Below are positions 1-12,308 of a stretch of DNA of 64,000 bases, one piece after another; the first letter of the stretch is position 1; each line of letters starts with the position of its first letter. The position numbers and the translations under genes are program-made. The stretch lies in sequence record MK327940.1. One strand, written 5' to 3'. Origin of the DNA: Escherichia phage vB_EcoM_G29. The notes under the pieces were generated by a model that saw only the letters and a list, made by a program, of their open reading frames with translations, had not been told where the DNA came from and made no database searches.

Positions 1-371
1 ATTAAAATTTTTTCATCAAGTCGTTGTTGACTCAATTTAATAGCTGATTTGCATGGATTATAATCATTTTTCCATTCTACTGGAATATCGCTGATGTCAG
101 GAACTTCAGTATCTTTTATACTGAACCCGCGTTTTAAGCATTCCGTTATAATGTCCGATTGACGCTTTCGCAAAAATTCTAACTTATCGTAAAAGAAAGT
201 AACATGACCAGAACCTAAAATAAATTTAGAAGATATTTTAAAATCTTTAACGCGCTTACCGTTTGCCACATGCTTACGAACTATACCAAAAACGCGTGGC
301 AATTCACGGTATTCTGCGATTAAATGTTGATCAGCAAGTTCAGATACTAAAGTCAAATTAATACGAGTCAT
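1..371 (-). CDS. denV: endonuclease V (pyrimidine-dimer DNA glycosylase); C-terminal end cut by window edge
   Basis: Hand translation from ATG at 371 gives [29 protein letters not shown]..., matching my memory of the T4 DenV N-terminus; ORF runs off position 1. Confidence 0.8.
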
Positions 372-430
372 TTTATCCCTCCAAGTAACTGTGAATATAC
401 TATCACAATTCTAGGAGAAAGTAAACCACT

Positions 431-961
<531 letters not shown>

Positions 962-1417
962 TTAAAAGAGGCTGTTCATTATTCGGTAAAGTGAAGGACC
1001 CATCACATATTGCCACTGAGTACGAGGAATAAGAGCAAAAGCATCCATCTCTGGAATCATAACGCCATCTTTATTTTCAAAATAAGACTCACAACGGCAA
1101 TTTCTGAACATCTCATGCTCTACTGGAATCGTATAATAAAATAACTGTAAGTCTTTATTACTAGAATATTTAAATACACCTAGGTCTTCTAGAAGGTCTG
1201 GATTATAATTGTTAAAACCAGTCTCTTCTGAGCATTCTCTTCGTGCTGCATCTAATGCGCTTAAATCAGAATTTTCTACACGCCCCTTTGGAATATCCCA
1301 GCGATGTGCCATCATTCCAGGCTTACGAGAACCAGTAACTCGTCCCATAAATAAATCTTTATCTTCTGTCATAAAGATAATACCAGCTGATAGTGTTTTC
1401 ATTTTAATTTCCTGCAT
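962..1417 (-). CDS. nudE: Nudix hydrolase
   Basis: 151 aa with Nudix box GRVENSDLSALDAARRECSEETG; position next to e as in T4; a second in-frame ATG at 1402 preceded by AGGAAA may be the true start. Confidence 0.85.
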   Translation of the reverse strand: MQEIKMKTLSAGIIFMTEDKDLFMGRVTGSRKPGMMAHRWDIPKGRVENSDLSALDAARRECSEETGFNNYNPDLLEDLGVFKYSSNKDLQLFYYTIPVEHEMFRNCRCESYFENKDGVMIPEMDAFALIPRTQWQYVMGPSLYRIMNSLF

Positions 1418-1887
1418 TCAGTGATAAAATTATTTAAATTTTGAGTATATTTCTTTTCATCAAAAATCTTTTGCTGCCTACGTAACCGCCATGGCATTTC
1501 AATGAACACGCACCATATTCCTGATAGTACTGCTGCTGTAAAAATATTAACAAGTATAATTAAAAGAATCCAATCTTCCGTTCTGCCTACTGGACTTTCT
1601 CCAAAGAAGCAAAATACAAATGATGTCACAGGAAAACTAATAATATACCACAGAATAACCTTCTTATCTGTGAACCAATCAGCGTTCGTTAACTTAGCAC
1701 GACCATTTTGAATACACACGAATTTATCATCTGTTACAGTAGATGGCTTAACTGCTTGATATCCCATTCTAAACTCCCTAATTAATCGTTTCTTTGTATC
1801 TTCAGAACAGCCGCTCCAGTCAACTCTATCGACTGAAATGCCATCGTCCCCATCATCTAAATCATACCAGAGAGTTTTTAAAATCAT
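1399..1887 (-). CDS. hypothetical protein, C-terminal transmembrane segments (e.2-e.8-like region)
   Basis: 162 aa track ORF; hydrophobic stretches; start overlaps the upstream stop as ATGA. Confidence 0.6.
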   Translation of the reverse strand: MILKTLWYDLDDGDDGISVDRVDWSGCSEDTKKRLIREFRMGYQAVKPSTVTDDKFVCIQNGRAKLTNADWFTDKKVILWYIISFPVTSFVFCFFGESPVGRTEDWILLIILVNIFTAAVLSGIWCVFIEMPWRLRRQQKIFDEKKYTQNLNNFITECRKLK

Positions 1888-2258
1888 TTGATTTTCCTAC
1901 AATCATTCACGAATTCTTTCATTGATTCATTTTCAATATAAGACATGTAGTTATTATATTCTTTTAATTGTATTTTGTAATCCTTTTTTCTTTGCCAATT
2001 TATTTTAAAATTATCATAATGAAAATATAAAATGATACTAAAGAATGAAAATAATGAAATTGCTATAGTATAATGAAGTTCACTCCAAACTTCTATTATA
2101 TCTACTATACCGCTGACGTTACTGCGGATGTTTAAAATAATACAGTCAATCATTAATCCAATAAGACTACCAGCAAGAGCTGCAGCCAACGCCACAGCAA
2201 AAATTAAAAATGACTCAGAAAAAGAATATTTGACTTTATTTAGTTTTGGCTTTTGCAT
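1884..2258 (-). CDS. hypothetical small membrane protein
   Basis: 124 aa track ORF with long hydrophobic segments; translationally coupled to neighbours. Confidence 0.6.
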   Translation of the reverse strand: MQKPKLNKVKYSFSESFLIFAVALAAALAGSLIGLMIDCIILNIRSNVSGIVDIIEVWSELHYTIAISLFSFFSIILYFHYDNFKINWQRKKDYKIQLKEYNNYMSYIENESMKEFVNDCRKIK

Positions 2259-2632
2259 CGTGATTCCTTAACAAATTTCATAATTTCATTAAATTCATAC
2301 ATATTTAGTTTAAGCTGGTGTTCCTTTTTGATCTTTTTACACTGAGCTTTCCATTCACGTACACGTTTACGATAATGCCTTCCTTGATACCAATATCCTA
2401 CCCAATTTACAGGTACCAATAAAAATGGAACTACTAATGGAAGAATTAATACTAACAAAAATATTACGCCAGATTCAATATCAGTCATAAAGTCTATAAC
2501 CATTCCAACAATCAATAGAATTACAAATGATATAGCTGTCACAGGACCTATTAATACATCAGTAGGAATTAGCTGGCGCTTTAATTCATACTTCAACGGT
2601 TTACTTGGAAGGTATAGTGATGGTTTTGACAT
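2240..2632 (-). CDS. hypothetical small membrane protein
   Basis: Track ORF 2240..2653 begins at a non-ATG codon; I prefer the ATG at 2632 (MSKPSLYL...) preceded by AGGAA. Confidence 0.55.
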   Translation of the reverse strand: MSKPSLYLPSKPLKYELKRQLIPTDVLIGPVTAISFVILLIVGMVIDFMTDIESGVIFLLVLILPLVVPFLLVPVNWVGYWYQGRHYRKRVREWKAQCKKIKKEHQLKLNMYEFNEIMKFVKESRCKSQN

Positions 2633-3209
2633 ATTCTCTACATTCCTTAACAAATTTTTCTAGTAATAAATCGCTTTCAAAATTGGGATTTTCTACGAAT
2701 TTATCAAAAAGATCATCAACAATAGTTAAGATATTCTTTTTACTAAGAATACGTTTATTTTCATGCTTCGTTTCAGAATCAACTATAAGAGTAAAGAAAT
2801 ATTTCTTGCCCTGAAATTTTACAGTAGTATCAATATAAAATAAATTTGACTTTTGTAAATTACGTTTAAACCATGCGTCACTTAAACTATAAACACCGAG
2901 ATAATCAAAATCGTCGTTTAAATAACAAACTGACCATTCAGGAGAAATGAAATCAGTAAATTCAACATCAAAATCACATGTCAATGAATGAATTGATTCA
3001 ATACTGTTAATAAGTATTCCAGGACGTATTAAAGACTTTTTACCTCTAGAAAATCTTCCAGAAAGACTTTCATCAGTTTCATATGAAGAACCCCAATAAT
3101 AATTACGTCCTTCTGCCATACGTTTAAGAGCATTTAATAATTGGTCTGGAACATCAACTTGTCTTTGGAATTCTTCAAACATTGAATTGAAATCACTTTG
3201 CATTTTCAT
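2601..3209 (-). CDS. hypothetical protein
   Basis: 202 aa track ORF with ATG start and GGAG upstream. Confidence 0.6.
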   Translation of the reverse strand: MKMQSDFNSMFEEFQRQVDVPDQLLNALKRMAEGRNYYWGSSYETDESLSGRFSRGKKSLIRPGILINSIESIHSLTCDFDVEFTDFISPEWSVCYLNDDFDYLGVYSLSDAWFKRNLQKSNLFYIDTTVKFQGKKYFFTLIVDSETKHENKRILSKKNILTIVDDLFDKFVENPNFESDLLLEKFVKECREYVKTITIPSK

Positions 3210-3229
3210 TCCTATTTACTCCAAGTAAT

Positions 3230-3245
3230 AGGGGCCGAAGCCCCT
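3230..3245 (-). other. GC-rich UUCG-tetraloop hairpin immediately after a stop codon
   Basis: aggggccgaagcccct; 19-nt identical copy at 44298-44316 downstream of hoc; no U-run. Confidence 0.6.
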
Positions 3246-3250
3246 TATCA

Positions 3251-3844
3251 TTATTTCAGAGAATTAATATATTCCTGAACATCGGCAGAGGTAGTTTCAA
3301 CCCCAGAAATATTACCATTAAAGGTTTCAACTCGAGCAAGAGTATCTTCAATATCAACCTTAGTCAGTGCTGCAATTTCAACTACATCATCGGCAGTACT
3401 AATTCCGAGGGCATTCGCGGCGCGAGTTTCACGGATATATTCCAATTTAACTGCAAGTTCTTGGCGAGCATCATCTAACTCAACTACTTTCTTGGCGATT
3501 TCAATTCGCATTTCAGCATAACCATCAGCTTTAGTAGTCAACTGCTCAGCTGTTCGACGATATAGTAAACCAAGTTTAGCATGCATTGTTACATCTTGAC
3601 CTTCCGAAAGAAGCTTGCGAATTTCACGCTCTTTTGATTCGGCCTGCTTATTCTTTTCGACAATAAGTTCACGAATACGCTTTTCTTCATTAATAGATTT
3701 AACAGAAGCAGTTTTTAGATCTTTAATCTTATCAAGTAGTTTTGCTGCTGCAGCAGTATACTGTTCTTCAACAGATAGATTTTTAGCCATAGCAGAACCA
3801 AGTTTAGTGCGAATAAACTCAACAATTTTCTTCAGTGTGTTCAT
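3251..3844 (-). CDS. coiled-coil protein, possibly PspA/IM30-like
   Basis: 197 aa; long charged heptad-like stretches; resemblance to PspA judged by eye only; own early-type promoter upstream. Confidence 0.55.
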
Positions 3845-3871
3845 AGTATTTCCTTAGGTTGGTATAATTAG

Positions 3872-3899
3872 ATAATATCACGTTTTAATAGATTGTAAA
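3872..3899 (-). promoter_or_regulatory. early sigma70-type promoter for the 3251..3844 gene
   Basis: Minus strand: GTTTACA, 16 bp, TGaTATTAT. Confidence 0.55.
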
Positions 3900-3900
3900 C

Positions 3901-4236
3901 TTATTCTTCGTCTAGCTCGTCGATAAAGACGTTGATGGCCTCGATAACGGCATCATTGATAGCTAATAAAATAAAATCATCGTCAGTACCTTTAGAAGAT
4001 TCTAAAGCATTGATATATGCTTGGTTGGCGAGTTCCCAAGCCTTTTTAAAATAAGGAGCTTCATCATCAGGACAAATATCCCGCACGCCTTCAAAGATAC
4101 GTTTGGCATAATCTAACACCCATTGTACAGGCATGTTTTGAGAACGTTCGTTAAACTCTTTAAAGTCCTTAGATTCAAAAAGCTCTTTAGGATAATTATT
4201 TCTATTACAAAAAGCTTTACTAAAGTTACGTTTCAT
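3901..4236 (-). CDS. hypothetical protein
   Basis: 111 aa track ORF; early promoter with inverted repeat immediately upstream (4255-4292). Confidence 0.6.
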   Translation of the reverse strand: MKRNFSKAFCNRNNYPKELFESKDFKEFNERSQNMPVQWVLDYAKRIFEGVRDICPDDEAPYFKKAWELANQAYINALESSKGTDDDFILLAINDAVIEAINVFIDELDEE

Positions 4237-4254
4237 AATGTTTTCCTCATTTGT

Positions 4255-4292
4255 ATAGGCTCATAATATCTCAATCATGAGCCTATGTAAAC
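4255..4292 (-). promoter_or_regulatory. early promoter with inverted repeat bracketing the -10
   Basis: Minus strand: TTTACA (4287-4292), 17 bp, TATTAT (4264-4269); inverted repeat ataggctcat/atgagcctat at 4255-4264 and 4277-4286. Confidence 0.6.
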
Positions 4293-4556
4293 TTATTTCA
4301 TATTATTGAAATATTCTTCTGCGATTTCGTCGTTATCATGGTAAACTTTAGAAGACAGTTTAACATAACCTTCTGCTGTGAACATATTAATCACAACTTT
4401 TACAGTATACCACTGACCGTCTTCATTACCCATTACTGCGTAAGTTTCAAACATCGGATGATCAGGACCGATAACTTTAATATCATTCACTGTACGACCG
4501 AAATCTTCTGAAACGCATTTCATAAAGAAGTTGAACAGTTCGCCGTAATTATCCAT
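4293..4556 (-). CDS. hypothetical protein
   Basis: Track ORF 4293..4676 shortened to the ATG at 4556 (MDNYGELF...) because 4557-4676 holds a -35/-10 promoter and the GGAGA ribosome-binding site. Confidence 0.55.
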   Translation of the reverse strand: MDNYGELFNFFMKCVSEDFGRTVNDIKVIGPDHPMFETYAVMGNEDGQWYTVKVVINMFTAEGYVKLSSKVYHDNDEIAEEYFNNMK

Positions 4557-4599
4557 TTCATTCTCCAAGTTGTTTTCTGTATCAGTAGTTGATAGTTGT

Positions 4600-4650
4600 A
4601 TAGTACCATGGAAGAACAGAGATGTAAACAGTTTTGTGAAAAAATTTTTA
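4600..4650 (-). promoter_or_regulatory. early sigma70-type promoter for the 4293..4556 gene
   Basis: Minus strand: AT-rich upstream element, GTTTACA (4623-4629), 17 bp, TGgTACTAT (4600-4605). Confidence 0.6.
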
Positions 4651-4752
4651 GGGAATTCTAGGGCAGGGATGGGCAATTAAAGGATAGGATAATATATTAT
4701 AAAGGGTATAAACTAAATGATGCCTAGAGAGGTCCAGAAAGGCCTAGATACC

Positions 4753-4777
4753 AAAAAGCCCTATCATTTAGATAGGG
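4753..4777 (-). terminator. Rho-independent terminator
   Basis: Hairpin ccctatc/gataggg followed by U-run on minus strand, downstream of the 4786..5187 gene. Confidence 0.6.
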
Positions 4778-4785
4778 ATTTAAAA

Positions 4786-5187
4786 TTATTTACCTAGTTT
4801 ACTTATTATAGCTTCTGCAGCAGCTTTTAGCTTAGATGCAGTGTTAATACGATTTTTAATTTCAGTATACGCATCGCCAAGAACATCAAGGCTATCAGAA
4901 TAAACACTTACACTATTGCGTTCGCTATTTGAAATAGAACCTTTAGTTTTGCGGTCAAAATCGGTGTACACGTCTTGAAGATCGCGGGCTGCCTTCTTTG
5001 CATCATCCAATGCATCAAGAGCTTTATTCAAAGCATTAACGTATTTTTTAGTGTCGAACATATTCTTAGAAATTTTAACAGGTGCGCGTTCAGGAGTAGC
5101 TAACACAGATTTAGGAACCTGAGCGCCAGATGCCAATTTCTTAGAAATTTTGAAAAATGCTTTATTGAATTTATTTTCTTGACTCAT
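4786..5187 (-). CDS. hypothetical protein
   Basis: 133 aa track ORF; start overlaps stop of the small upstream ORF (ATGA); Rho-independent terminator downstream. Confidence 0.6.
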   Translation of the reverse strand: MSQENKFNKAFFKISKKLASGAQVPKSVLATPERAPVKISKNMFDTKKYVNALNKALDALDDAKKAARDLQDVYTDFDRKTKGSISNSERNSVSVYSDSLDVLGDAYTEIKNRINTASKLKAAAEAIISKLGK

Positions 5188-5348
5188 TGTAAAAGAACAT
5201 TATCGATGTTGTACATTTCAATAGCTTTAGCTTTCCACTTAAGAAAATCGCCGCGGTCTTTTGGGTCCAATTGGAAGAATACTTTAGTAAGATCTGCTTC
5301 AGATGGTAATTTTGCTGCTTCGGTTAAAAATTCGGCATAGGTTTTCAT
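5184..5348 (-). CDS. small protein with capsid-targeting-sequence-like N-terminus (internal-protein-like)
   Basis: Hand-translated 54 aa MKTYAEFLTEAAKLPSEADLTKVFFQLDPKDRGDFLKWKAKAIEMYNIDNVLLQ; below the 60-aa track cutoff; N-terminus matches the T4 internal-protein motif MKTYQEFIAE. Confidence 0.5.
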   Translation of the reverse strand: MKTYAEFLTEAAKLPSEADLTKVFFQLDPKDRGDFLKWKAKAIEMYNIDNVLLQ

Positions 5349-5438
5349 TTAAAATCCTTGAAATAATTTATCGGTTGGTTATTAATTATTTATTACTTTG
5401 TTACTATCCGTAACAGCGTTATCCGAGTGATTCAAACT

Positions 5439-5465
5439 AAAAAGCCCCAACCTTTCGGTCGGGGC
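5439..5465 (-). terminator. Rho-independent terminator (GC hairpin plus U-run on minus strand)
   Basis: gccccaacctttcggtcggggc hairpin preceded on the plus strand by an A-run; same 31-bp element recurs at 5996-6026. Confidence 0.7.
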
Positions 5466-5473
5466 TAAGAATG

Positions 5474-5947
5474 TCATTTGATTTGTTTAGCAGACCAAAT
5501 GCGGTCTTTAATAATTTTTTGGATGTCTTCAACATACTCAAGAGAGTGAACATGTGGATTATCTTTGAAACTATAAGCACGGGCTAACTTTTGGCCTTCG
5601 GTTTTGATTACTAAAAGCTCTTTAAGGATAGCTTCATATTTAGCGATAATTCCTTTAACGATATTTTTTTCTTGTGCCGCTTTAGGATCTGCTTTAGGAG
5701 CAGGTTTACCCGAAGCCTTTGCAAAAGCAGCGCCAGTAGCAACTAAACTTTTCCAGGCCATACTAACTGCATTTCCCGTAAATCCTTCCGCTTTCATGTC
5801 GCGTGCAAACTGGAATCGCGATTCATCAGAAGCATCTTTATAGGAATATTTACCCGCGGCAATGGCAGCTTTTGCAACAGCTTGAATTTCGGTGCTAGAT
5901 GCTTCATTTAACACCGCTTCATTTAAAAATTGAGTATATGATTTCAT
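5474..5947 (-). CDS. internal head protein-like (capsid-targeting-sequence N-terminus)
   Basis: Start moved to ATG 5947 (MKSYTQFLNEAV...); TATAAATA late promoter at 5986-5993 and terminator at 5996-6022 lie inside the longer track ORF. Confidence 0.65.
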   Translation of the reverse strand: MKSYTQFLNEAVLNEASSTEIQAVAKAAIAAGKYSYKDASDESRFQFARDMKAEGFTGNAVSMAWKSLVATGAAFAKASGKPAPKADPKAAQEKNIVKGIIAKYEAILKELLVIKTEGQKLARAYSFKDNPHVHSLEYVEDIQKIIKDRIWSAKQIK

Positions 5948-5985
5948 CTTATTTCCTGTTTTAATTTGTAGATTTAATATACTAA

Positions 5986-5993
5986 TATTTATA
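5986..5993 (-). promoter_or_regulatory. T4 late promoter upstream of the internal-protein-like gene
   Basis: Plus-strand tatttata equals minus-strand TATAAATA, about 40 nt upstream of ATG 5947. Confidence 0.7.
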
Positions 5994-5995
5994 CC

Positions 5996-6022
5996 AAAAA
6001 GCCCCAACCTTTCGGTCGGGGC
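5996..6022 (-). terminator. Rho-independent terminator, second copy of the same element
   Basis: Identical hairpin and A-run; sits between the stable-RNA/tRNA region and the late promoter of the internal-protein gene. Confidence 0.7.
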
Positions 6023-6039
6023 TAAGCCTTGCGGCAACC

Positions 6040-6330
6040 TTGTCGGGGTTCCACCTGCTAAGGCAAGTGTTTGTACGAAACGCCGGGATTCGAACCCGGT
6101 TATTAAGTAGTTGACGCTACTCAATATTTTAAAAGGCCATATCTCGACCATATCCGAACGTTCCGTCAAAAACGCTACTCGGCTTACGGCAAAGATATTT
6201 CCTCGAATCGATAATTCGGTGCGCCGTTTCTGCTGTGATAGTAAAGAGCCAGAACACAGTAAAACTGTGGGAGGAAACTATACTCCAGGGAACATCAGTC
6301 CGACGACTTACCGGTAGCGACCCGGTTTCT
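6040..6330 (-). ncRNA. candidate small stable RNA(s), by analogy to T4 species 1/2 (rnaC/rnaD)
   Basis: Non-coding gap downstream of the tRNA cluster on the same strand; contains a tRNA-like T-arm (ccgggattcgaacccgg) but no complete cloverleaf. Confidence 0.25.
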
Positions 6331-6680
6331 TAATATTCTTTTAAAGAATCAATATATTCACGGCGTTTACGCCACAAATCAATTGCTTCATACGCGGATT
6401 CAGCATTTCGAATTAGCCGGCATTTATGTAAAGACTTATGATTTTGATATTGTGTAGATAACGGAATTGTATCTAAAAGGTCTTTACGATCAAAATATTC
6501 GTAACCATCTAAACCAAATGAACGATTTTTGAGAAATTGCCAATGACCATATTCGTTTTCGACATAAACATAATCTGCATGCTGATAAAGCAAATTAATT
6601 ACACGTTCAGAAATAACAGTATCATTATGATTAAAATAGAATGTTAAATCATGAACTACTAAATAAACATTACCTTTCAT
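6330..6680 (-). CDS. hypothetical protein
   Basis: 116 aa track ORF with GAGGAAA ribosome-binding site, immediately downstream of tRNA-Arg. Confidence 0.55.
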   Translation of the reverse strand: MKGNVYLVVHDLTFYFNHNDTVISERVINLLYQHADYVYVENEYGHWQFLKNRSFGLDGYEYFDRKDLLDTIPLSTQYQNHKSLHKCRLIRNAESAYEAIDLWRKRREYIDSLKEY

Positions 6681-6698
6681 ATTTTCCTCACTTATAAT

Positions 6699-6774
6699 TG
6701 GTCGAGGCAGTAGGGATCGAACCTACGACCTAGGACTTAGAAGGTCCTTGCTCTTCCTTCTGAGCTATGCCCCG
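6699..6774 (-). tRNA. tRNA-Arg (anticodon UCU)
   Basis: Cloverleaf folded by hand; anticodon loop cuUCUaa; T-loop TTCGATC; encoded CCA. Confidence 0.85.
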
Positions 6775-6778
6775 TAAT

Positions 6779-6854
6779 TGGGGTGACCGATGGGAGTCGA
6801 ACCCATGACTACGAGAATCACAATCTCGAGTTCTACCAACTGAACTACGGCCAC
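6779..6854 (-). tRNA. tRNA-His (anticodon GUG)
   Basis: Hand fold; anticodon stem cgaga/tctcg, loop uuGUGau; discriminator C73; no encoded G-1. Confidence 0.75.
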
Positions 6855-6968
6855 ATTAATACCTACTCCAACAATCAAGATGTCTTCACACGAAATTAAG
6901 AGAAGAGTGATCAGTTCAACCCCTATAATCGCGTCAAGTAGATATTAATGTGACAGTTGTCACAAATT

Positions 6969-7043
6969 TGGCGGACGTGATAGGATTCGAACCTATAACC
7001 AATCGCTTAACAGGCGATCGCTCTGCCATTGAGCTACACATCC
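6969..7043 (-). tRNA. tRNA-Asn (anticodon GUU)
   Basis: Hand fold; anticodon stem atcgc/gcgat, loop cuGUUaa; encoded CCA. Confidence 0.8.
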
Positions 7044-7047
7044 AAAT

Positions 7048-7134
7048 TGGTGGGGAGTGGTGGAGTCGAACCACCCGAGTCGCAATGACAATGGATTTAC
7101 AGTCCACACCGCTACCTCTACGGGATAACTCCCC
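7048..7134 (-). tRNA. tRNA-Tyr (anticodon GUA), long variable arm
   Basis: Hand fold; 87 nt; anticodon loop cuGUAaa; encoded CCA. Confidence 0.75.
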
Positions 7135-7143
7135 AAATTAATT

Positions 7144-7218
7144 TGGTGGCCCTGGGTGGAATTGAACCACCATCTGGCGATTATGAGTCGCTTGCTTGAA
7201 CCTTCCAGCTACAGGGCC
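7144..7218 (-). tRNA. tRNA with CAU anticodon (elongator Met or lysidine-modified Ile)
   Basis: Hand fold; anticodon loop cuCAUaa; T-stem ggtgg/ccacc; position matches the T4 tRNA-Ile slot. Confidence 0.75.
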
Positions 7219-7219
7219 T

Positions 7220-7295
7220 TGGTGCTGATTGACGGAATCGAACCGCCGACCTTCTCATTACAAGTGAGTTGCTCTACCTACTGAGCTAAATCAGC
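7220..7295 (-). tRNA. tRNA-Thr (anticodon UGU)
   Basis: Hand fold; anticodon loop cuUGUaa; encoded CCA. Confidence 0.85.
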
Positions 7296-7300
7296 AAAAC

Positions 7301-7390
7301 TGGCGGAGGCGATAGGATTTGAACCTATGAGTCGCCGGAGCGACTGCCGGTTTTCAAGACCGGTGCATTAAACCACTCTGCCACGCCTCC
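7301..7390 (-). tRNA. tRNA-Ser (anticodon UGA), long variable arm
   Basis: Hand fold; 90 nt; anticodon stem ccggt/accgg, loop cuUGAaa. Confidence 0.85.
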
Positions 7391-7392
7391 AG

Positions 7393-7466
7393 TCTCCGTG
7401 GCAGGATTTGAACCTACGACATTCTGCTCCCAAAGCAGACGCTCTACCAAACTGAGCTACACGGAG
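7393..7466 (-). tRNA. tRNA-Pro (anticodon UGG), CCA not encoded
   Basis: Hand fold; anticodon loop uuUGGga; 3' end abuts the tRNA-Ser 5' end, as in the T4 Pro-Ser dimeric precursor. Confidence 0.85.
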
Positions 7467-7476
7467 TAAATTAAAT

Positions 7477-7550
<74 letters not shown>

Positions 7551-7555
7551 AAATT

Positions 7556-7642
7556 TGGTGCGAGAAGTGGGACTCGAACCCACAAGGAAATCATTCCGCA
7601 GCATTTTAAGTGCTGTGCCTTTACCAATTTGGCCATTCTCGC
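7556..7642 (-). tRNA. tRNA-Leu (anticodon UAA), long variable arm
   Basis: Hand fold; anticodon stem cagca/tgctg, loop cuUAAaa. Confidence 0.85.
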
Positions 7643-7643
7643 G

Positions 7644-7716
7644 CTGGGAATAAAGGACTCGAACCTTTGCATCCTGGAATCAAAATCCAGTGCCTTACCA
7701 ACTTGGCTAATTCCCA
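7644..7716 (-). tRNA. tRNA-Gln (anticodon UUG), CCA not encoded
   Basis: Hand fold; anticodon stem ctgga/tccag, loop uuUUGau; one nucleotide from the tRNA-Leu 5' end (Gln-Leu dimer). Confidence 0.85.
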
Positions 7717-7813
7717 ATTATTAACAAAGGCTCTTAAGCAAGAACCCTTGATGATAGAGGGTATTAATCAGTGCGATATGAGTTAATAATAACAAATAAT
7801 TCTTAAAGCATAT

Positions 7814-8101
7814 TTACCATTTATAATAATACATATTTACGATGCATTCAAGACCCAAAGGATTCTTGAAAATATCATATTCAAGAGGACCTTTTTCTGT
7901 TTCAATAAAGAAATCAAAATTTACTGTATTAAATTTACGTTCTTCCTTCACTAATTTAACTTGAGAAGATGAACGGTCAATGTAAACCTTTTCAACTTCA
8001 AAACATGTTAAAATGCCATAATCATCAATCAAAGCTTTAGCCGCGTCTTGATCATATTTATATCCATTTTCAATGGATGATACTTTCGCATAAAGAATCA
8101 T
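7814..8101 (-). CDS. hypothetical protein
   Basis: 95 aa track ORF in the operon upstream of the tRNA cluster. Confidence 0.55.
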   Translation of the reverse strand: MILYAKVSSIENGYKYDQDAAKALIDDYGILTCFEVEKVYIDRSSSQVKLVKEERKFNTVNFDFFIETEKGPLEYDIFKNPLGLECIVNMYYYKW

Positions 8102-8103
8102 TA

Positions 8104-8502
8104 TCAGCCTTCATCAACAATAGTGTGAGTATTAGCATTTACGATTTGCCACCAATCAAAGCGATTAGAATCCATCGGTTTGTTTTCATTTTCTTTGATA
8201 ATGTCACGGAGTTCATCTTCAGAGAATGCTTTAGCGATTAAATCGGTATACCCACCACGTGGATAATAATTATCACCTGCAAACAAAAGGAAATTTACCT
8301 TCCCGGAAGGAACATACGCTTCCTTAGGATACTTGTTTCCTGCGTGGTCAACCACTTCAATATAACGGTAAGGAATATCGGTTCTTTCAACCCATTGCCA
8401 TGCCGCCGCAGGGGAATCGAAAGCATCTACACCTAAACGATTATCTTCATCTTTAGACGGATTATTTTCGTAATCCGCATATACATAATATTCAACGTTC
8501 AT
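8104..8502 (-). CDS. hypothetical protein
   Basis: 132 aa track ORF; stop abuts the next start. Confidence 0.55.
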   Translation of the reverse strand: MNVEYYVYADYENNPSKDEDNRLGVDAFDSPAAAWQWVERTDIPYRYIEVVDHAGNKYPKEAYVPSGKVNFLLFAGDNYYPRGGYTDLIAKAFSEDELRDIIKENENKPMDSNRFDWWQIVNANTHTIVDEG

Positions 8503-8687
8503 TATTCACCTTTAGAAATTTTATCCATAACAATAGCAATTAAACCAATTAAAAATGCTACTACAAGTGAAAAAACATTTTCTGCCGTAGTCAATAATCC
8601 GCATATAAATCCAACAAACATTGAAAAACTGAAAGCGGAAGCAGAAATTGCAATAGCAACATTTCGAATTAATTCACAACGTTTCAT
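8502..8687 (-). CDS. hypothetical small membrane protein
   Basis: 61 aa, mostly hydrophobic; GAGGAG ribosome-binding site; early promoter with inverted repeat upstream. Confidence 0.5.
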   Translation of the reverse strand: MKRCELIRNVAIAISASAFSFSMFVGFICGLLTTAENVFSLVVAFLIGLIAIVMDKISKGE

Positions 8688-8706
8688 TTTATTCTCCTCA
8701 GTAGTA

Positions 8707-8745
8707 GATAGGGTAATAGTATCACTACCCTATCTAAAAGTAAAC
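8707..8745 (-). promoter_or_regulatory. early sigma70-type promoter with inverted repeat bracketing the -10 (PeSL-like cassette)
   Basis: Minus strand: GTTTAC, about 17-18 bp, TGaTACTAT; inverted repeat gatagggta/taccctatc at 8707-8715 and 8726-8734. Confidence 0.6.
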
Positions 8746-8979
8746 TTATTTTTTACGAAAAATTGATTTATTTTCTGCTGCCCATTTTTCAATAACTGCA
8801 GCAGGACCAGTAACAACAATTTTATCACCGTAATCTTCTGCGGCGAGTTGACCGAAATTATCTAATGCATCACGAAGAACTCCATGAGGCATTTCACCCA
8901 TTTTATCTTTCTTGCCAGTGTAAATAAACTCAACTTTTACATCAGCAGTTTCAGCAATAAATTCTTGGTAAGTTTTCAT
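8746..8979 (-). CDS. internal head protein-like (capsid-targeting sequence MKTYQEFIAE)
   Basis: Start placed at the ATG giving MKTYQEFIAETADV... (77 aa); exact match to the T4 internal-protein targeting motif. Confidence 0.7.
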   Translation of the reverse strand: MKTYQEFIAETADVKVEFIYTGKKDKMGEMPHGVLRDALDNFGQLAAEDYGDKIVVTGPAAVIEKWAAENKSIFRKK

Positions 8980-9005
8980 TTTGATTTCCATTTGGTTTTG
9001 TTTTG

Positions 9006-9050
9006 ATAGGGTAATAGTATCACAACTAAAACCCTATGTAAACAACTTTG
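9006..9050 (-). promoter_or_regulatory. early promoter with inverted repeat (PeSL-like cassette)
   Basis: Minus strand: TTTACA (9037-9042), 17 bp, TACTAT (9014-9019) with TGa; inverted repeat atagggt/accctat. Confidence 0.6.
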
Positions 9051-9055
9051 TGAAA

Positions 9056-9313
9056 TTATTTTAAATCTTCTAATCGTTTCTTCATCTTAGAACCATTTTT
9101 AGCAATTTCTCCTGCATCGGAGCATAATGCTAAAAGTGCTTTAACTTTAGTTTGGTCTCCTTTAAAAGATGAAGGATCGACCGCAGCAGCAAGTTCTTTA
9201 ATACGAGAGAAAAGACGCTCAGCTTCAGCTAAAGCCATTCCAAGCTTTACTTCCATACCGTGGGAAGATTCAGTGATAGTAGTTTTTGTAGCAAACTCTT
9301 TGAAAGTTTTCAT
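9056..9313 (-). CDS. internal head protein-like (MKTFKEFATK N-terminus)
   Basis: 85 aa track ORF; N-terminus resembles the capsid-targeting sequence; ipI-equivalent position beside 57B. Confidence 0.6.
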   Translation of the reverse strand: MKTFKEFATKTTITESSHGMEVKLGMALAEAERLFSRIKELAAAVDPSSFKGDQTKVKALLALCSDAGEIAKNGSKMKKRLEDLK

Positions 9314-9335
9314 TTTTATTTTCCTAATTAATTTT

Positions 9336-9380
9336 GATGAGGTAATAGTATCACTACCTCATCAGTATGTAAACAACTTT
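9336..9380 (-). promoter_or_regulatory. early promoter with inverted repeat (PeSL-like cassette)
   Basis: Minus strand: TTTACA (9368-9373), 17 bp, TACTAT (9345-9350); inverted repeat gatgaggta/tacctcatc with paired changes relative to the 8707 copy. Confidence 0.6.
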
Positions 9381-9386
9381 GTGAAA

Positions 9387-10071
<685 letters not shown>

Positions 10072-10072
<1 letters not shown>

Positions 10073-10797
10073 TATAGTACCTTTAGCGTATTTTTAATTT
10101 TAGAAAAAAGTTCTTCAAGAGAACCATCGTTTGTAATTACTAAATCGCCATCACGAATTGGCAATCCAGCTTCTGTAATATGTGTATCATTGGATTTTTG
10201 ACCAGGACGAACTACATGAATTACTGTAGCACCCATCGCCCTAGCCGCATCCATTTCATGATCTTGACGGGTATCAGGAACGATATAATAATCATAACCT
10301 GAGTTAAATTTATCAAGATAATCTAAAGCAAATAATTTTATCCAGTACATGCGGTCGAAGTTATTAACAATCAAATCCGTACCTAGGGCTTGCATCAGAC
10401 GACGGACTGACCATTGATCTTCAATATTATTTATAACGTCAATAATCTTGTTAAATGCTACGGAATTAACTGATTCTTGTCCTTCGTCATCAAAAACAAA
10501 CACACCTTTAATTGGGCTTTTACCATTAAGATAGCAAAATGCTTGTTCCATAATCGTGATTACTTCTAATTTAGTTAGATTTAAATTAGTCTCACGATCA
10601 TAGTCAATTCCTTCAAACTCTTTACGAGTTAAGCAAGGATAGTCGGTATTTGCTGCAAATACTCCCCATGCATAAGCCAATGCATCCTTAATAGGACCAG
10701 CAAGTTGGTATTTAACTGCAGAATAATTGCTCATGATAAAATCAGCAGTAGTATCTTTTCCACTACGCTTTACACCGCTTAAAAAGATTAGTTTCAT
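10072..10797 (-). CDS. 1: deoxynucleoside monophosphate kinase
   Basis: 241 aa; P-loop GVKRSGKDT; T4 gene 1 length and synteny. Confidence 0.92.
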
Positions 10798-10846
10798 ATG
10801 TTTCTCCTCAAATTTAGTTAAGATTATAACACATGAAACTGAAGCA

Positions 10847-11377
10847 TTAAACTTCCGCTATAATTTTTCCATCTTTTTCTACTTGAAAATACGTATAAGG
10901 AATCGTTGCTGTACATACTAAAGCCGGGTCTGAATCTTCTGTGTAGCTAAATTCTACTTCAGACAGGTCAGAAACCCAAGGCTTATAAAAATTTATTGAC
11001 ATCACGATTTCAGTTTTGCTATTATCTAAAATGTAAAGCGTAATGTATTCAGGACCTGTTTTTTGGGCAGTATTTTCACCTGTAAGATAGTTGCTAGTTC
11101 CTAGCATCCATTCATACATTCCTATCCATGACTTAAGTTCTTCATCAACTATAAATCTCACGATGAGTGGATCGTACTCAAATGTAGCACCTGGACGTTG
11201 TGCTCGGCCCAGTCCAAACGGCCCAGTCACGGTATCAGTAACAGGTATTCTAATTCCTGGAATAGGAACTGACTGAGCATTTAAAGTAAAAGCAGATGTA
11301 GTATTACTATGTGGTATTGATACTACAAAGTTAGTTGTATTTGCTTGGTTAAAAATTTGTTGCAGTGCTTGCGACAT
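10847..11377 (-). CDS. 3: tail completion / sheath stabiliser gp3
   Basis: Start moved to the ATG at 11377 (MSQALQQIF..., 176 aa) with GAGGAA upstream; synteny 1-3-2-4. Confidence 0.8.
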   Translation of the reverse strand: MSQALQQIFNQANTTNFVVSIPHSNTTSAFTLNAQSVPIPGIRIPVTDTVTGPFGLGRAQRPGATFEYDPLIVRFIVDEELKSWIGMYEWMLGTSNYLTGENTAQKTGPEYITLYILDNSKTEIVMSINFYKPWVSDLSEVEFSYTEDSDPALVCTATIPYTYFQVEKDGKIIAEV

Positions 11378-11483
11378 ATATTCCTCATAATGCTTTATAA
11401 CTGTTGGTGGTATAATGGGTCTAAGTCCCTTCCATTCAATTCCATTTAGAACAAACAACAGAAAAGAATGGAAGATAATAGAA

Positions 11484-12308
11484 TTAGATATTTGACCAGA
11501 CTTTGTTTGCAGAGAAACGTTTTCCTTTTGAAACGAACTGCTGAAGTGGCATTAACACAACGTTCGCCCAGTCTTTCGGGGCGATTTCAACAAGGCTACC
11601 CATAATATTACCAGGTATATATGCCTTAATCATTTGGTCTGCACCCCTAAATCCTTTCACTTGACTCCAATCAATTTTTAATTTCGTTTTATTAGTAATA
11701 GTAGGTGTATTTGAATATTGCTTTAAAAGCTCTTCTAGGAATTGCTGGCGAGCTTTAGGTGGAATATAGTGCAAGTTCAATCCGTACATTAAATTATGCT
11801 TACCTAAACCAAGGTAAATTATCAAAGGAAATTTATCCCAGTAAGGAAGAGTTTCCTTGTGTTTAGCATCATAAGCAAAAGCATATATTCGTCCCGGCTG
11901 CGGGCGAACAACTTTATGTCCTTTTACTTGCTTAATAGTTTCAGCAAACCACTTTCTGGTTTTATTATTAATTGCTGCGCCTTCATTACGAATTTTATCG
12001 CGCAATGTTTGTCTGAATGAATTTATCATAAGCAGTTGTCTTTCTTGCTTATTGAGTTTATTCATTGGTTTTGATTCAAGCTTTTGAATCTTTTCAGCCG
12101 TTTTAATTCCTGAAGCATATTTTGACATTGCTGAAGTAAACGTAGAGTATTTGATTCCTCTTTCTTCAGCAAATTGCTTTCCGGTCATTCCTTTTGCTTT
12201 GGCCTTTTTATATTCAAGACCTATCTGAATCCATTTCTTTTCGTTTAATGATTGCTTAACCTTTGGAACTTGGGGAGTGCTTTCATTAATTATTTGAAAA
12301 ATAGCCAT
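11484..12308 (-). CDS. 2: DNA end protector gp2
   Basis: 274 aa track ORF; T4 length and synteny. Confidence 0.85.

Follow-up and report, generated by a model that had tools for sequence, protein, structure and literature searches.

The window analysed here, which is the whole of a 64,000-nucleotide stretch of Escherichia phage vB_EcoM_G29 (sequence record MK327940.1), carries on its minus strand three consecutive small genes, e.8, e.7 and e.6, each headed by a sequence that resembles the early promoters of phage T4; the promoter of the middle gene, e.7, also contains a strong inverted repeat. An earlier reading of the sequence (termed here the original prediction) held that the three genes, each equipped with its own promoter, were consistent with individually acquired cassettes. 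Comparison with related phages suggests a different arrangement, in which e.8 and e.6 are conserved anchors, e.7 is the variable gene, and the promoters are the seams along which the material between the anchors is exchanged.

Positions 3000-5400 are 100% identical to MK327945.1 (Tequatrovirus), where the three genes are annotated as coding sequences (CDSs). They correspond to T4 e.6, e.7 and e.8 (Table 1), and a synteny comparison with T4, which the original prediction had proposed, places them in the T4 order, with the tRNA cluster upstream of the block and e.5 to e downstream. None of the three proteins has a significant match in Pfam, NCBIfam or the PDB sequences, and an Rfam scan reports no family in the e.6-e.8 region, matching only the tRNA cluster. 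The distributions of the genes differ: e.8 is present in 596 phage records, at 95% protein identity or more in 506 of them; e.6 DNA is detectable in about 950 records, reaching Klebsiella and Aeromonas phages; and e.7 is present in only 182 records, which form three divergence bands. A search of IMG/VR found e.7 at 2 loci and e.8 at 10, plus 9 from metagenomes. For the T4 orthologues, both the RNA and the protein of e.7 and e.8 are classed as early, as is the RNA of e.6.

All three promoters begin with GTTTACA, the core of the e.7 promoter, P(e.7), spanning 4292-4263. The -35 hexamer of P(e.7) lies immediately 3' of the e.8 stop codon, and that of P(e.6) immediately 3' of the e.7 stop codon. 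The TGn motif expected ahead of the -10 is replaced at P(e.7) by AGA, so that TG-n-TAYTAT occurs in two of the three promoters. GTTTACA by itself shows no enrichment in the window (10 observed, 11.3 expected), and a generic sigma-70 scan of positions 1-12000 returns 52 sites against 42.8 expected, that is, barely above background. The combined pattern GTTTAC-N17-19-TAYTAT, on the other hand, has 6 matches in the 64 kb, all on the minus strand and 25-45 nt ahead of start codons, where 0.09 are expected (about 65-fold enrichment); none of 100 shuffles reaches 6. Because GTTTACA alone is at chance level, the signal resides in the combined architecture and its position. A scan of the gene strand over 3200-4800 found neither a MotA box (TGCTT at -30 with a -10) nor a late promoter (motif TATAAATA).

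The T4 early promoter consensus consists of GTTTAC at -36 to -31, a TGn/-10 element and an A-rich upstream region (Hinton 2010, PMC2988021; Nolan 2006, PMC1524935). The window sites share with T4 early promoters the GTTTAC, a 16-17 bp spacer, TGn in two of three cases, a TAnnAT -10, an A/T-rich upstream sequence (most evident at P(e.8)) and the very genes that they precede; they differ in the missing TGn of P(e.7) and in that the UP-element position of P(e.7) and P(e.6) is occupied by preceding coding sequence. A-rich UP-like sequence is clear at P(e.8) (AAAAATTTTTTCACAAAACT), and the portion TTCACAAA(R)NTGTTTACA of the stretch upstream of that promoter recurs at the 9043 and 9374 promoters; in the case of P(e.7) and P(e.6), this position falls on the end of the upstream open reading frame (ORF), which is A/T-rich for e.7 and less so for e.6. 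'Most', not all, T4 early promoters have every element (Hinton 2010, PMC2988021). P(e.8) is conserved in T4, in RB69 and in every Tequatrovirus locus examined, and the promoter architecture persists in Tequatrovirus, Mosigvirus and Dhakavirus despite differences in the neighbouring genes; relative to the window, the P(e.6) of T4 contains an additional G and a duplicated ATTAT. Judging from consensus, conservation and the early expression of the T4 orthologues, the three sites are predicted to be active sigma-70-type T4 early promoters, orthologous to those ahead of T4 e.6, e.7 and e.8.

Table 1. Features of the e.8-e.6 region and of the internal-protein locus
Feature	Position	Strand	Description
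e.8 CDS	4293..4556	-	87 amino acids (aa); PHROGs phrog_2678, family of unknown function
e.7 CDS	3901..4236	-	111 aa; PHROGs phrog_7266, family of unknown function; variable gene of the slot
e.6 CDS	3251..3844	-	197 aa; PHROGs phrog_1203, family of unknown function; conserved downstream anchor of the slot
P(e.8)	4600..4629	-	G + -35 TTTACA (4628-4623), spacer 17, TGg (4608-4606), -10 TACTAT (4605-4600); predicted +1 about 4593
P(e.7)	4255..4292	-	G + -35 TTTACA (4291-4286), spacer 17, -10 TATTAT (4268-4263); composite of promoter and stem-loop, PeSL-like (see text); predicted +1 about 4256
P(e.6)	3872..3900	-	G + -35 TTTACA (3899-3894), spacer 16, TGa (3880-3878), -10 TATTAT (3877-3872); predicted +1 about 3865
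UP-like A/T-rich stretch	4630..4658	-	CCCTAAAAATTTTTTCACAAAACT, upstream of P(e.8); UP-element expectation from Hinton 2010 and Nolan 2006
12-nt direct repeat, copy 1	4286..4297	-	AATAAGTTTACA; stop codon + -35
12-nt direct repeat, copy 2	3894..3905	-	AATAAGTTTACA; stop codon + -35; 392-bp spacing from copy 1
Exchangeable module	3861..4253	-	e.7 leader and ribosome-binding site, e.7 ORF, P(e.6); from loss of homology with L14, ime09 and CT01; boundaries about +/-10 nt
Terminator-like hairpin	4759..4777	-	CCCTATCTAAATGATAGGG then CTTTTT; free-standing, about 130 nt upstream of P(e.8); terminator in MK327945; RNA -11 kcal/mol, z = -3.0; probably closes the gene preceding e.8
GC-rich tetraloop hairpin, UUCG-type	3230..3245	-	AGGGGCTTCGGCCCCT, just past the e.6 stop codon; terminator in MK327945; probably closes the three-gene block
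Internal-protein locus promoter	8716..8745	-	GTTTACT, spacer 17, TGa-TACTAT; 11-bp arms TAGATAGGGTA/TACCCTATCTA around the -10; abuts upstream stop codon; z = -8.3
Internal-protein locus promoter	9014..9043	-	GTTTACA, spacer 17, TGa-TACTAT; arms (A)TAGGGT/ACCCTA(T); z = -4.7
Internal-protein locus promoter	9345..9374	-	GTTTACA, spacer 17, TGa-TACTAT; 10-bp arms TGATGAGGTA/TACCTCATCA around the -10; z = -7.3

Several minor observations concern the anchor genes and their immediate surroundings. Homologues of e.6 are labelled 'host specificity protein (ACLAME 1259)' or, in Klebsiella phage EI, 'shock protein A'; searches of Pfam, NCBIfam and PDB sequences support neither label. The ribosome-binding site of e.8, GGAGAATGAAA (4556-4566, minus strand), agrees with GG*AGRAYARAA, the consensus for RegB cleavage, at 10 of 11 positions, and GGAG is absent from the ribosome-binding sites of e.7 and e.6; RegB may therefore selectively inactivate the e.8 mRNA. 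The block at 4630-4758 (about 110 nt of non-coding sequence from the terminator to P(e.8)) is conserved in Tequatrovirus and RB69 and is missing from GRNsp7 and Dhakavirus, in which the terminator sits near the promoter. The AR1 record annotates a tiny plus-strand ORF within this block, and the spacer 4630-4760 yields no Rfam match and no significant fold (z = +1.1).

The hairpin within the e.7 promoter

The inverted repeat of P(e.7) has 10-bp arms, ATAGGCTCAT (4286-4277) and ATGAGCCTAT (4264-4255), which can be extended to a 13-bp stem containing one G.T (in RNA, G.U) pair by pairing 4286-4274 with 4267-4255 around a 6-nt loop (4273-4268). This stem begins at the final base of the -35 and ends near +2; the hairpin fits within the 56 nt that separate the e.8 stop codon from the e.7 start codon. 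Folding gives -18.2 kcal/mol for the sense RNA (z = -6.1; none of 200 shuffles is as stable) and -15.8 for the antisense RNA; the two strands, taken as single-stranded DNA, give -8.5 and -8.1 kcal/mol (z = -5.3 and -4.2). No structure appears on folding P(e.6) or P(e.8) (z = +0.46 and -0.07). A canonical intrinsic (Rho-independent) terminator was also considered for the P(e.7) stem and is ruled out by the missing U-tract. The predicted e.7 start (about 4256) coincides with the end of the right arm (its last two bases), so that the hairpin is expected only in read-through RNA from e.8 (or in single-stranded DNA), and not in the e.7 mRNA.

Early-type promoters of the strict form number eight in the window, all on the gene strand. 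Strong hairpins associated with the -10 occur at four of them, namely those at 9374, 9043 and 8745 (all in the internal-protein locus) and at 4292, with z between -4.7 and -8.3; the hairpin at 426 is moderate, and the promoters at 4629, 3900 and 56950 have none. When only the five early promoters that abut a stop codon are considered, four carry a hairpin. P(e.8) has none, but the free-standing terminator hairpin at 4759..4777 precedes it.

These results bear out the original prediction in its central structural claim, that consecutive small genes each possess a promoter made of GTTTACA, a 16-17 bp spacer and TAYTAT, an architecture found 6 times where 0.09 are expected; they require it to be redrawn in its details. 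TG-n-TAYTAT, supposed to be present throughout, is found at P(e.8) and P(e.6) and gives way to AGA at P(e.7). The 10-bp repeat said to surround the -10 at 4255-4292 exists and is longer than proposed, but five of the six -10 bases lie inside its right arm rather than between the arms. The remark that such a repeat occurs here 'again' is correct for the window, since the promoters at 8745, 9043 and 9374 likewise bracket their -10 with repeats of 6-11 bp; of the promoters of the three genes, only P(e.7) has a hairpin.

Sequence comparisons point to conservation of the pairing itself. Across 14 variants of the e.8-proximal stem, 93% of cells pair, against 27-42% when the partners are slid; double changes are seen at two positions (U-A to C-G and A-U to G-C) together with G.U intermediates, and the covariation score is not equalled by any of 500 shuffles. 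The e.6-proximal stem found in relatives takes the forms GGGAGT/ACTCCC, GAGAGC/GCTCTC, GAGGAC/GTCCTC and GGGAAC/GTTCCC; here 100% of cells are paired and four of seven pairs are compensatory, with the score again reached in 0 of 500 shuffles. Such patterns are supportive, rather than proof, of selection for nucleic-acid pairing as opposed to a fixed protein operator. The sense-strand G.U pair of the e.8-proximal stem, kept in 13 of 14 sequences, weakly favours a structure formed by the sense strand. The T4 reference (NC_000866.4, AF158101.6) has an unresolved N, at position 70346, in the left arm of the same hairpin (GGCTNATG).

Composite elements of this kind, each an early promoter combined with a stem-loop (termed PeSLs), were described by Arbiol 2010 (PMC2839356): their stem usually sits between -35 and -10 or overlaps the latter; they are flanked by an upstream stop codon and by a ribosome-binding site and start codon; they are found in hyperplastic regions; and their stems block sequencing reactions. 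One PeSL stem-loop that was tested terminated transcription about as strongly as rrnB T1, and T-even analogues, in which AT-rich stems sit on T4 early promoters, are already described. Comeau 2014 (PMC4122927) extended PeSLs to PST/T4, with the promoter consensus TTTACW-N17-TAYWAT. P(e.7) conforms to this description in its layout (TAA/GTTTACA...TATTAT...GAGGAAAACATT/ATG, with the same frame at e.6), in having its stem at the commonest PeSL placement, in fitting the PST/T4 consensus, and in lying within a hyperplastic region at the edge of a hotspot of indels and replacements. It differs from the PeSLs of RB49 and phi1 in that its stem is A/T-rich and lacks polyG/polyC, and from those of Comeau 2014, whose stems are drawn just upstream of the promoter, in that its stem is inside the promoter; P(e.6) and P(e.8), having no stem-loop of their own, are plain early promoters. 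By layout, P(e.7) thus appears to be a PeSL-type element.

A further parallel is offered by the internal-protein elements of T-even phages, which Repoila et al. 1994, as relayed by Arbiol 2010, characterized as T4 early promoters bearing weaker A/T-rich stems of variable size and flanking small variable genes. Three such elements, with the layout of P(e.7), are present in the window itself, at its internal-protein locus (8716-9374). Those elements, however, hold the -10 in the loop, whereas at e.7 five of its six bases are in the stem; moreover, the e.7 slot lies outside the internal-protein loci, to which the description, in its relayed form, was limited.

An exchangeable slot between e.8 and e.6

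What lies between the two anchors was compared at 31 loci having both e.8 and e.6. The slot holds from zero to three genes, in at least eight configurations: the T4-type e.7; a 75%-identical e.7 allele (AR1); a 132-aa ORF (ime09, Dhakavirus); a 176-aa ORF (CT01); a 58-aa ORF (T2); a 54-aa ORF plus e.7 (Lutter, SH7); three unrelated ORFs (RB69); or nothing (L14 and others). The element TAA/GTTTACATAGGCTCATGATTGAGATATTATGAGCCTATA follows e.8 whatever gene comes next, divergence starting right past the right arm of the hairpin, and homology to the window is not regained before the e.6 ribosome-binding site (AACCTAAGGAAATACT).

The breakpoints are at or inside promoters. In 7 of 7 loci the T4-type P(e.6) is found together with the T4-type e.7 allele, and it occurs with no other; the AR1-type allele is followed, in 3 of 3 loci, by a different e.6 promoter with a hairpin of its own. 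In every slot variant e.6 is preceded by a promoter, which in many cases (T2, CT01 and GRNsp7 among them) overlaps the 3' end of the ORF before it. Lutter and SH7 share with T2 the same small ORF, ending ...GAAATAGTTTACA, and diverge from it immediately past that -35. The Dhakavirus locus L027 has an empty slot and a single promoter, the form that would be expected as the product of recombination between the flanking stop-codon/-35 repeats. From these comparisons the promoters would seem to be seams of exchange rather than heads of mobile units, with e.6 and e.8 as the conserved anchors and e.7 as the variable gene.

The cassette hypothesis of the original prediction is thereby narrowed. Early-type promoters at a cassette-exchange locus are indeed what the slot polymorphism indicates (e.7 in 182 records, as against 596 for e.8), but it is only e.7 that varies. 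To call e.6 and e.8 orphan, individually acquired genes is contradicted by the 506 records in which e.8 is at least 95% identical and by the presence of e.6 in Klebsiella and Aeromonas phages, neither gene giving any sign of individual acquisition within Tequatrovirus. Nor is the moving unit a promoter together with the gene that it heads: the P(e.7) hairpin stays with e.8, and P(e.6) travels with the e.7 allele.

The exchange is the known PeSL shuffling of T4-type phages (Arbiol 2010; Comeau 2014; Repoila 1994), that is, a newly documented instance of a mechanism already described. Like lambdoid morons and integron cassettes (both comparisons were made in Arbiol 2010, PMC2839356), it involves a small accessory gene that has its own expression signals and is placed between conserved neighbours. 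Unlike integron cassettes, the e.7 slot has no integrase and no attC/attI system; and unlike in morons, the regulatory sequences of the slot appear to be the crossover sites, and the promoter that moves drives the next gene.

Two further observations concern exchange near the slot. The e.7 allele of the AR1 type seems to be a mosaic: it resembles the window e.7 in its 5' part (window positions about 4236-4080), whereas its 3' part and the next promoter are divergent, which implies a crossover inside the gene. In RB69, e.8 has 95% protein identity and the whole 239-nt region upstream of e.8 is near-identical to that of Tequatrovirus, whereas e.6 has only 88%; another Mosigvirus, G2469, has no e.8 at the position that it occupies in RB69. 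This suggests that the e.8 block was recently transferred between genera.

Proposed mechanism and alternatives

The favoured account joins T4-type early promoters, a PeSL-like hairpin at P(e.7) and an exchange of the middle module at promoter patches; taken as a whole it is considered probable. Under this account, unmodified host RNA polymerase would fire the three promoters straight after infection, so that transcription of each small gene would have a start of its own. The hairpin, forming only in RNA that reads through from e.8 or in single-stranded DNA, would most likely serve to attenuate the read-through RNA or to protect its 3' end, and so would insulate neighbouring cassettes from each other. 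The shared stop-codon/-35 motif and the conserved hairpin would constitute short patches of homology, at which the phage recombination machinery could exchange the e.7 leader, the e.7 ORF and the promoter of the next gene.

A number of points weigh against this account. As regards the promoter, the TGn typical of strong T4 early promoters is missing at P(e.7). As regards the hairpin, the stem (4286-4255) has no U-tract, being followed by ACAAAUGAGG, and is not listed by the terminator scan; the PeSL stem that was tested is G/C-rich and comes from a different genus (Arbiol 2010, PMC2839356); the folding energies do not discriminate between RNA and single-stranded DNA; the covariation comes from related sequences and from a small number of independent events; and P(e.6) adjoins a stop codon yet has no hairpin, so that insulation is not universal. 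As regards the exchange, the best-ranked database records do not include the exact deletion that would remove e.7 between the two AATAAGTTTACA repeats, and the 'empty' slots of Tequatrovirus resemble non-homologous deletions.

That the folding is significant for single-stranded DNA on both strands, and that breakpoints cluster at or beside the hairpin, lends some substance to an alternative that is nevertheless judged rather unlikely: the hairpin might act as DNA, either as a folded single strand or cruciform that targets recombination (compare integron attC sites and endonuclease VII substrates) or as a supercoiling-dependent promoter switch, any role in RNA being secondary. The T4 deletion endpoints described by Mosig had GGGC/GCCC inverted repeats, and one Dhakavirus stem variant is exactly GGGC...GCCC; the N within the T4 reference stem, and the capacity of such stems to block sequencing reactions (Arbiol 2010, PMC2839356), also fit a structure formed in DNA. 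The conserved G.U pair of the sense strand, however, corresponds to a C.A mismatch on the other strand, which weakly favours a sense-strand structure over a symmetric cruciform. Furthermore, a dedicated recombinase is not known; short homology is enough for T4 recombination, and the shared -35 motif already offers it; and several crossovers are at -35 boxes that have no hairpin. A bolder form of the idea, in which the -10 hairpins of many T-even early promoters are folded single-strand DNA recombination sites (analogues of attC recognized by structure-specific phage machinery) and not RNA attenuators, is regarded as a long shot; if it were true, T4-type phages would possess an integrase-free, structure-targeted gene-cassette system.

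It is very unlikely that the inverted repeat is instead an operator, at which a dimeric repressor of phage or host would cover the -10 and so end early transcription. A palindrome across the -10 is the classical operator layout, AsiA does not account for the T4 early shut-off, and Arbiol 2010 (PMC2839356) speculated on a DNA-binding protein that recognizes the stems. But the arms are wholly different within this one genome (ATAGGCTCAT, TAGATAGGGTA and TGATGAGGTA), and orthologous arms change by paired substitutions, where a protein of fixed specificity would keep the sequence; the loop varies in length from 6 to 18 nt; and P(e.6) and P(e.8) lack a repeat, their genes being equally early. That the consensus matches are chance or relic motifs, with e.6-e.8 expressed by read-through from further upstream, is hardly credible, for, while generic sigma-70 matches are uninformative (52 against 42.8 expected in 1-12000) and P(e.7) lacks TGn, the specific architecture is some 65-fold enriched, strand-specific and positioned just ahead of start codons, is conserved in Tequatrovirus, Mosigvirus and Dhakavirus despite different flanking genes, and places a promoter ahead of the next gene in every slot variant, and the T4 orthologues are expressed early.

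Taken as promoter-mediated cassette exchange, the e.7 slot provides a concrete and well-sampled example within the T4 genus, for which hundreds of genomes permit fine mapping. It goes slightly beyond what has been published in three respects: compensatory substitutions suggest that the stems are selected for pairing rather than for sequence; crossovers inside promoters mean that a gene travels with the promoter of its downstream neighbour; and a single slot is seen in at least eight configurations. Annotators should note that e.6 and e.8 are the stable anchors, with a variable gene between them; for phage engineering, the e.8/e.6 junction offers a naturally tolerant insertion site with an early promoter supplied. 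The result leaves the picture of T4 transcription unchanged.

Features adjoining the three-gene block

Upstream of the terminator-like hairpin at 4759..4777, the ORFs 4786..5187 and 5184..5348 correspond to the C-terminal and N-terminal parts, respectively, of one PHROGs family, phrog_2280, which is a single 187-aa CDS in JB75 and vB_SsoM_113; in the window this gene has probably been split by a frameshift. The ORF 5474..5947 is a full-length paralogue of the same gene. It is flanked by identical hairpins (AGCCCCGACCGAAAGGTTGGGGCT, at 5443-5466 and 6000-6023), an arrangement that suggests that the gene was duplicated in tandem together with a terminator. At 6073-6166 (minus strand), ARAGORN and the GenBank record both place a 94-nt tRNA-Lys(UUU); the Rfam tRNA model at its gathering score does not report this tRNA and finds the other 11. 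T4 has the stable RNAs rnaC and rnaD in the interval from e.8 to the tRNA cluster.

On the other side of the block, the hairpin at 3230-3245 separates e.6 from the genes e.5 to nudE (window 962-3209), which, unlike e.6, e.7 and e.8, overlap or abut one another. No strict early-type promoter occurs between these genes, the next one downstream being that at 426, ahead of e. By their arrangement, e.5 to nudE look like one translationally coupled unit.

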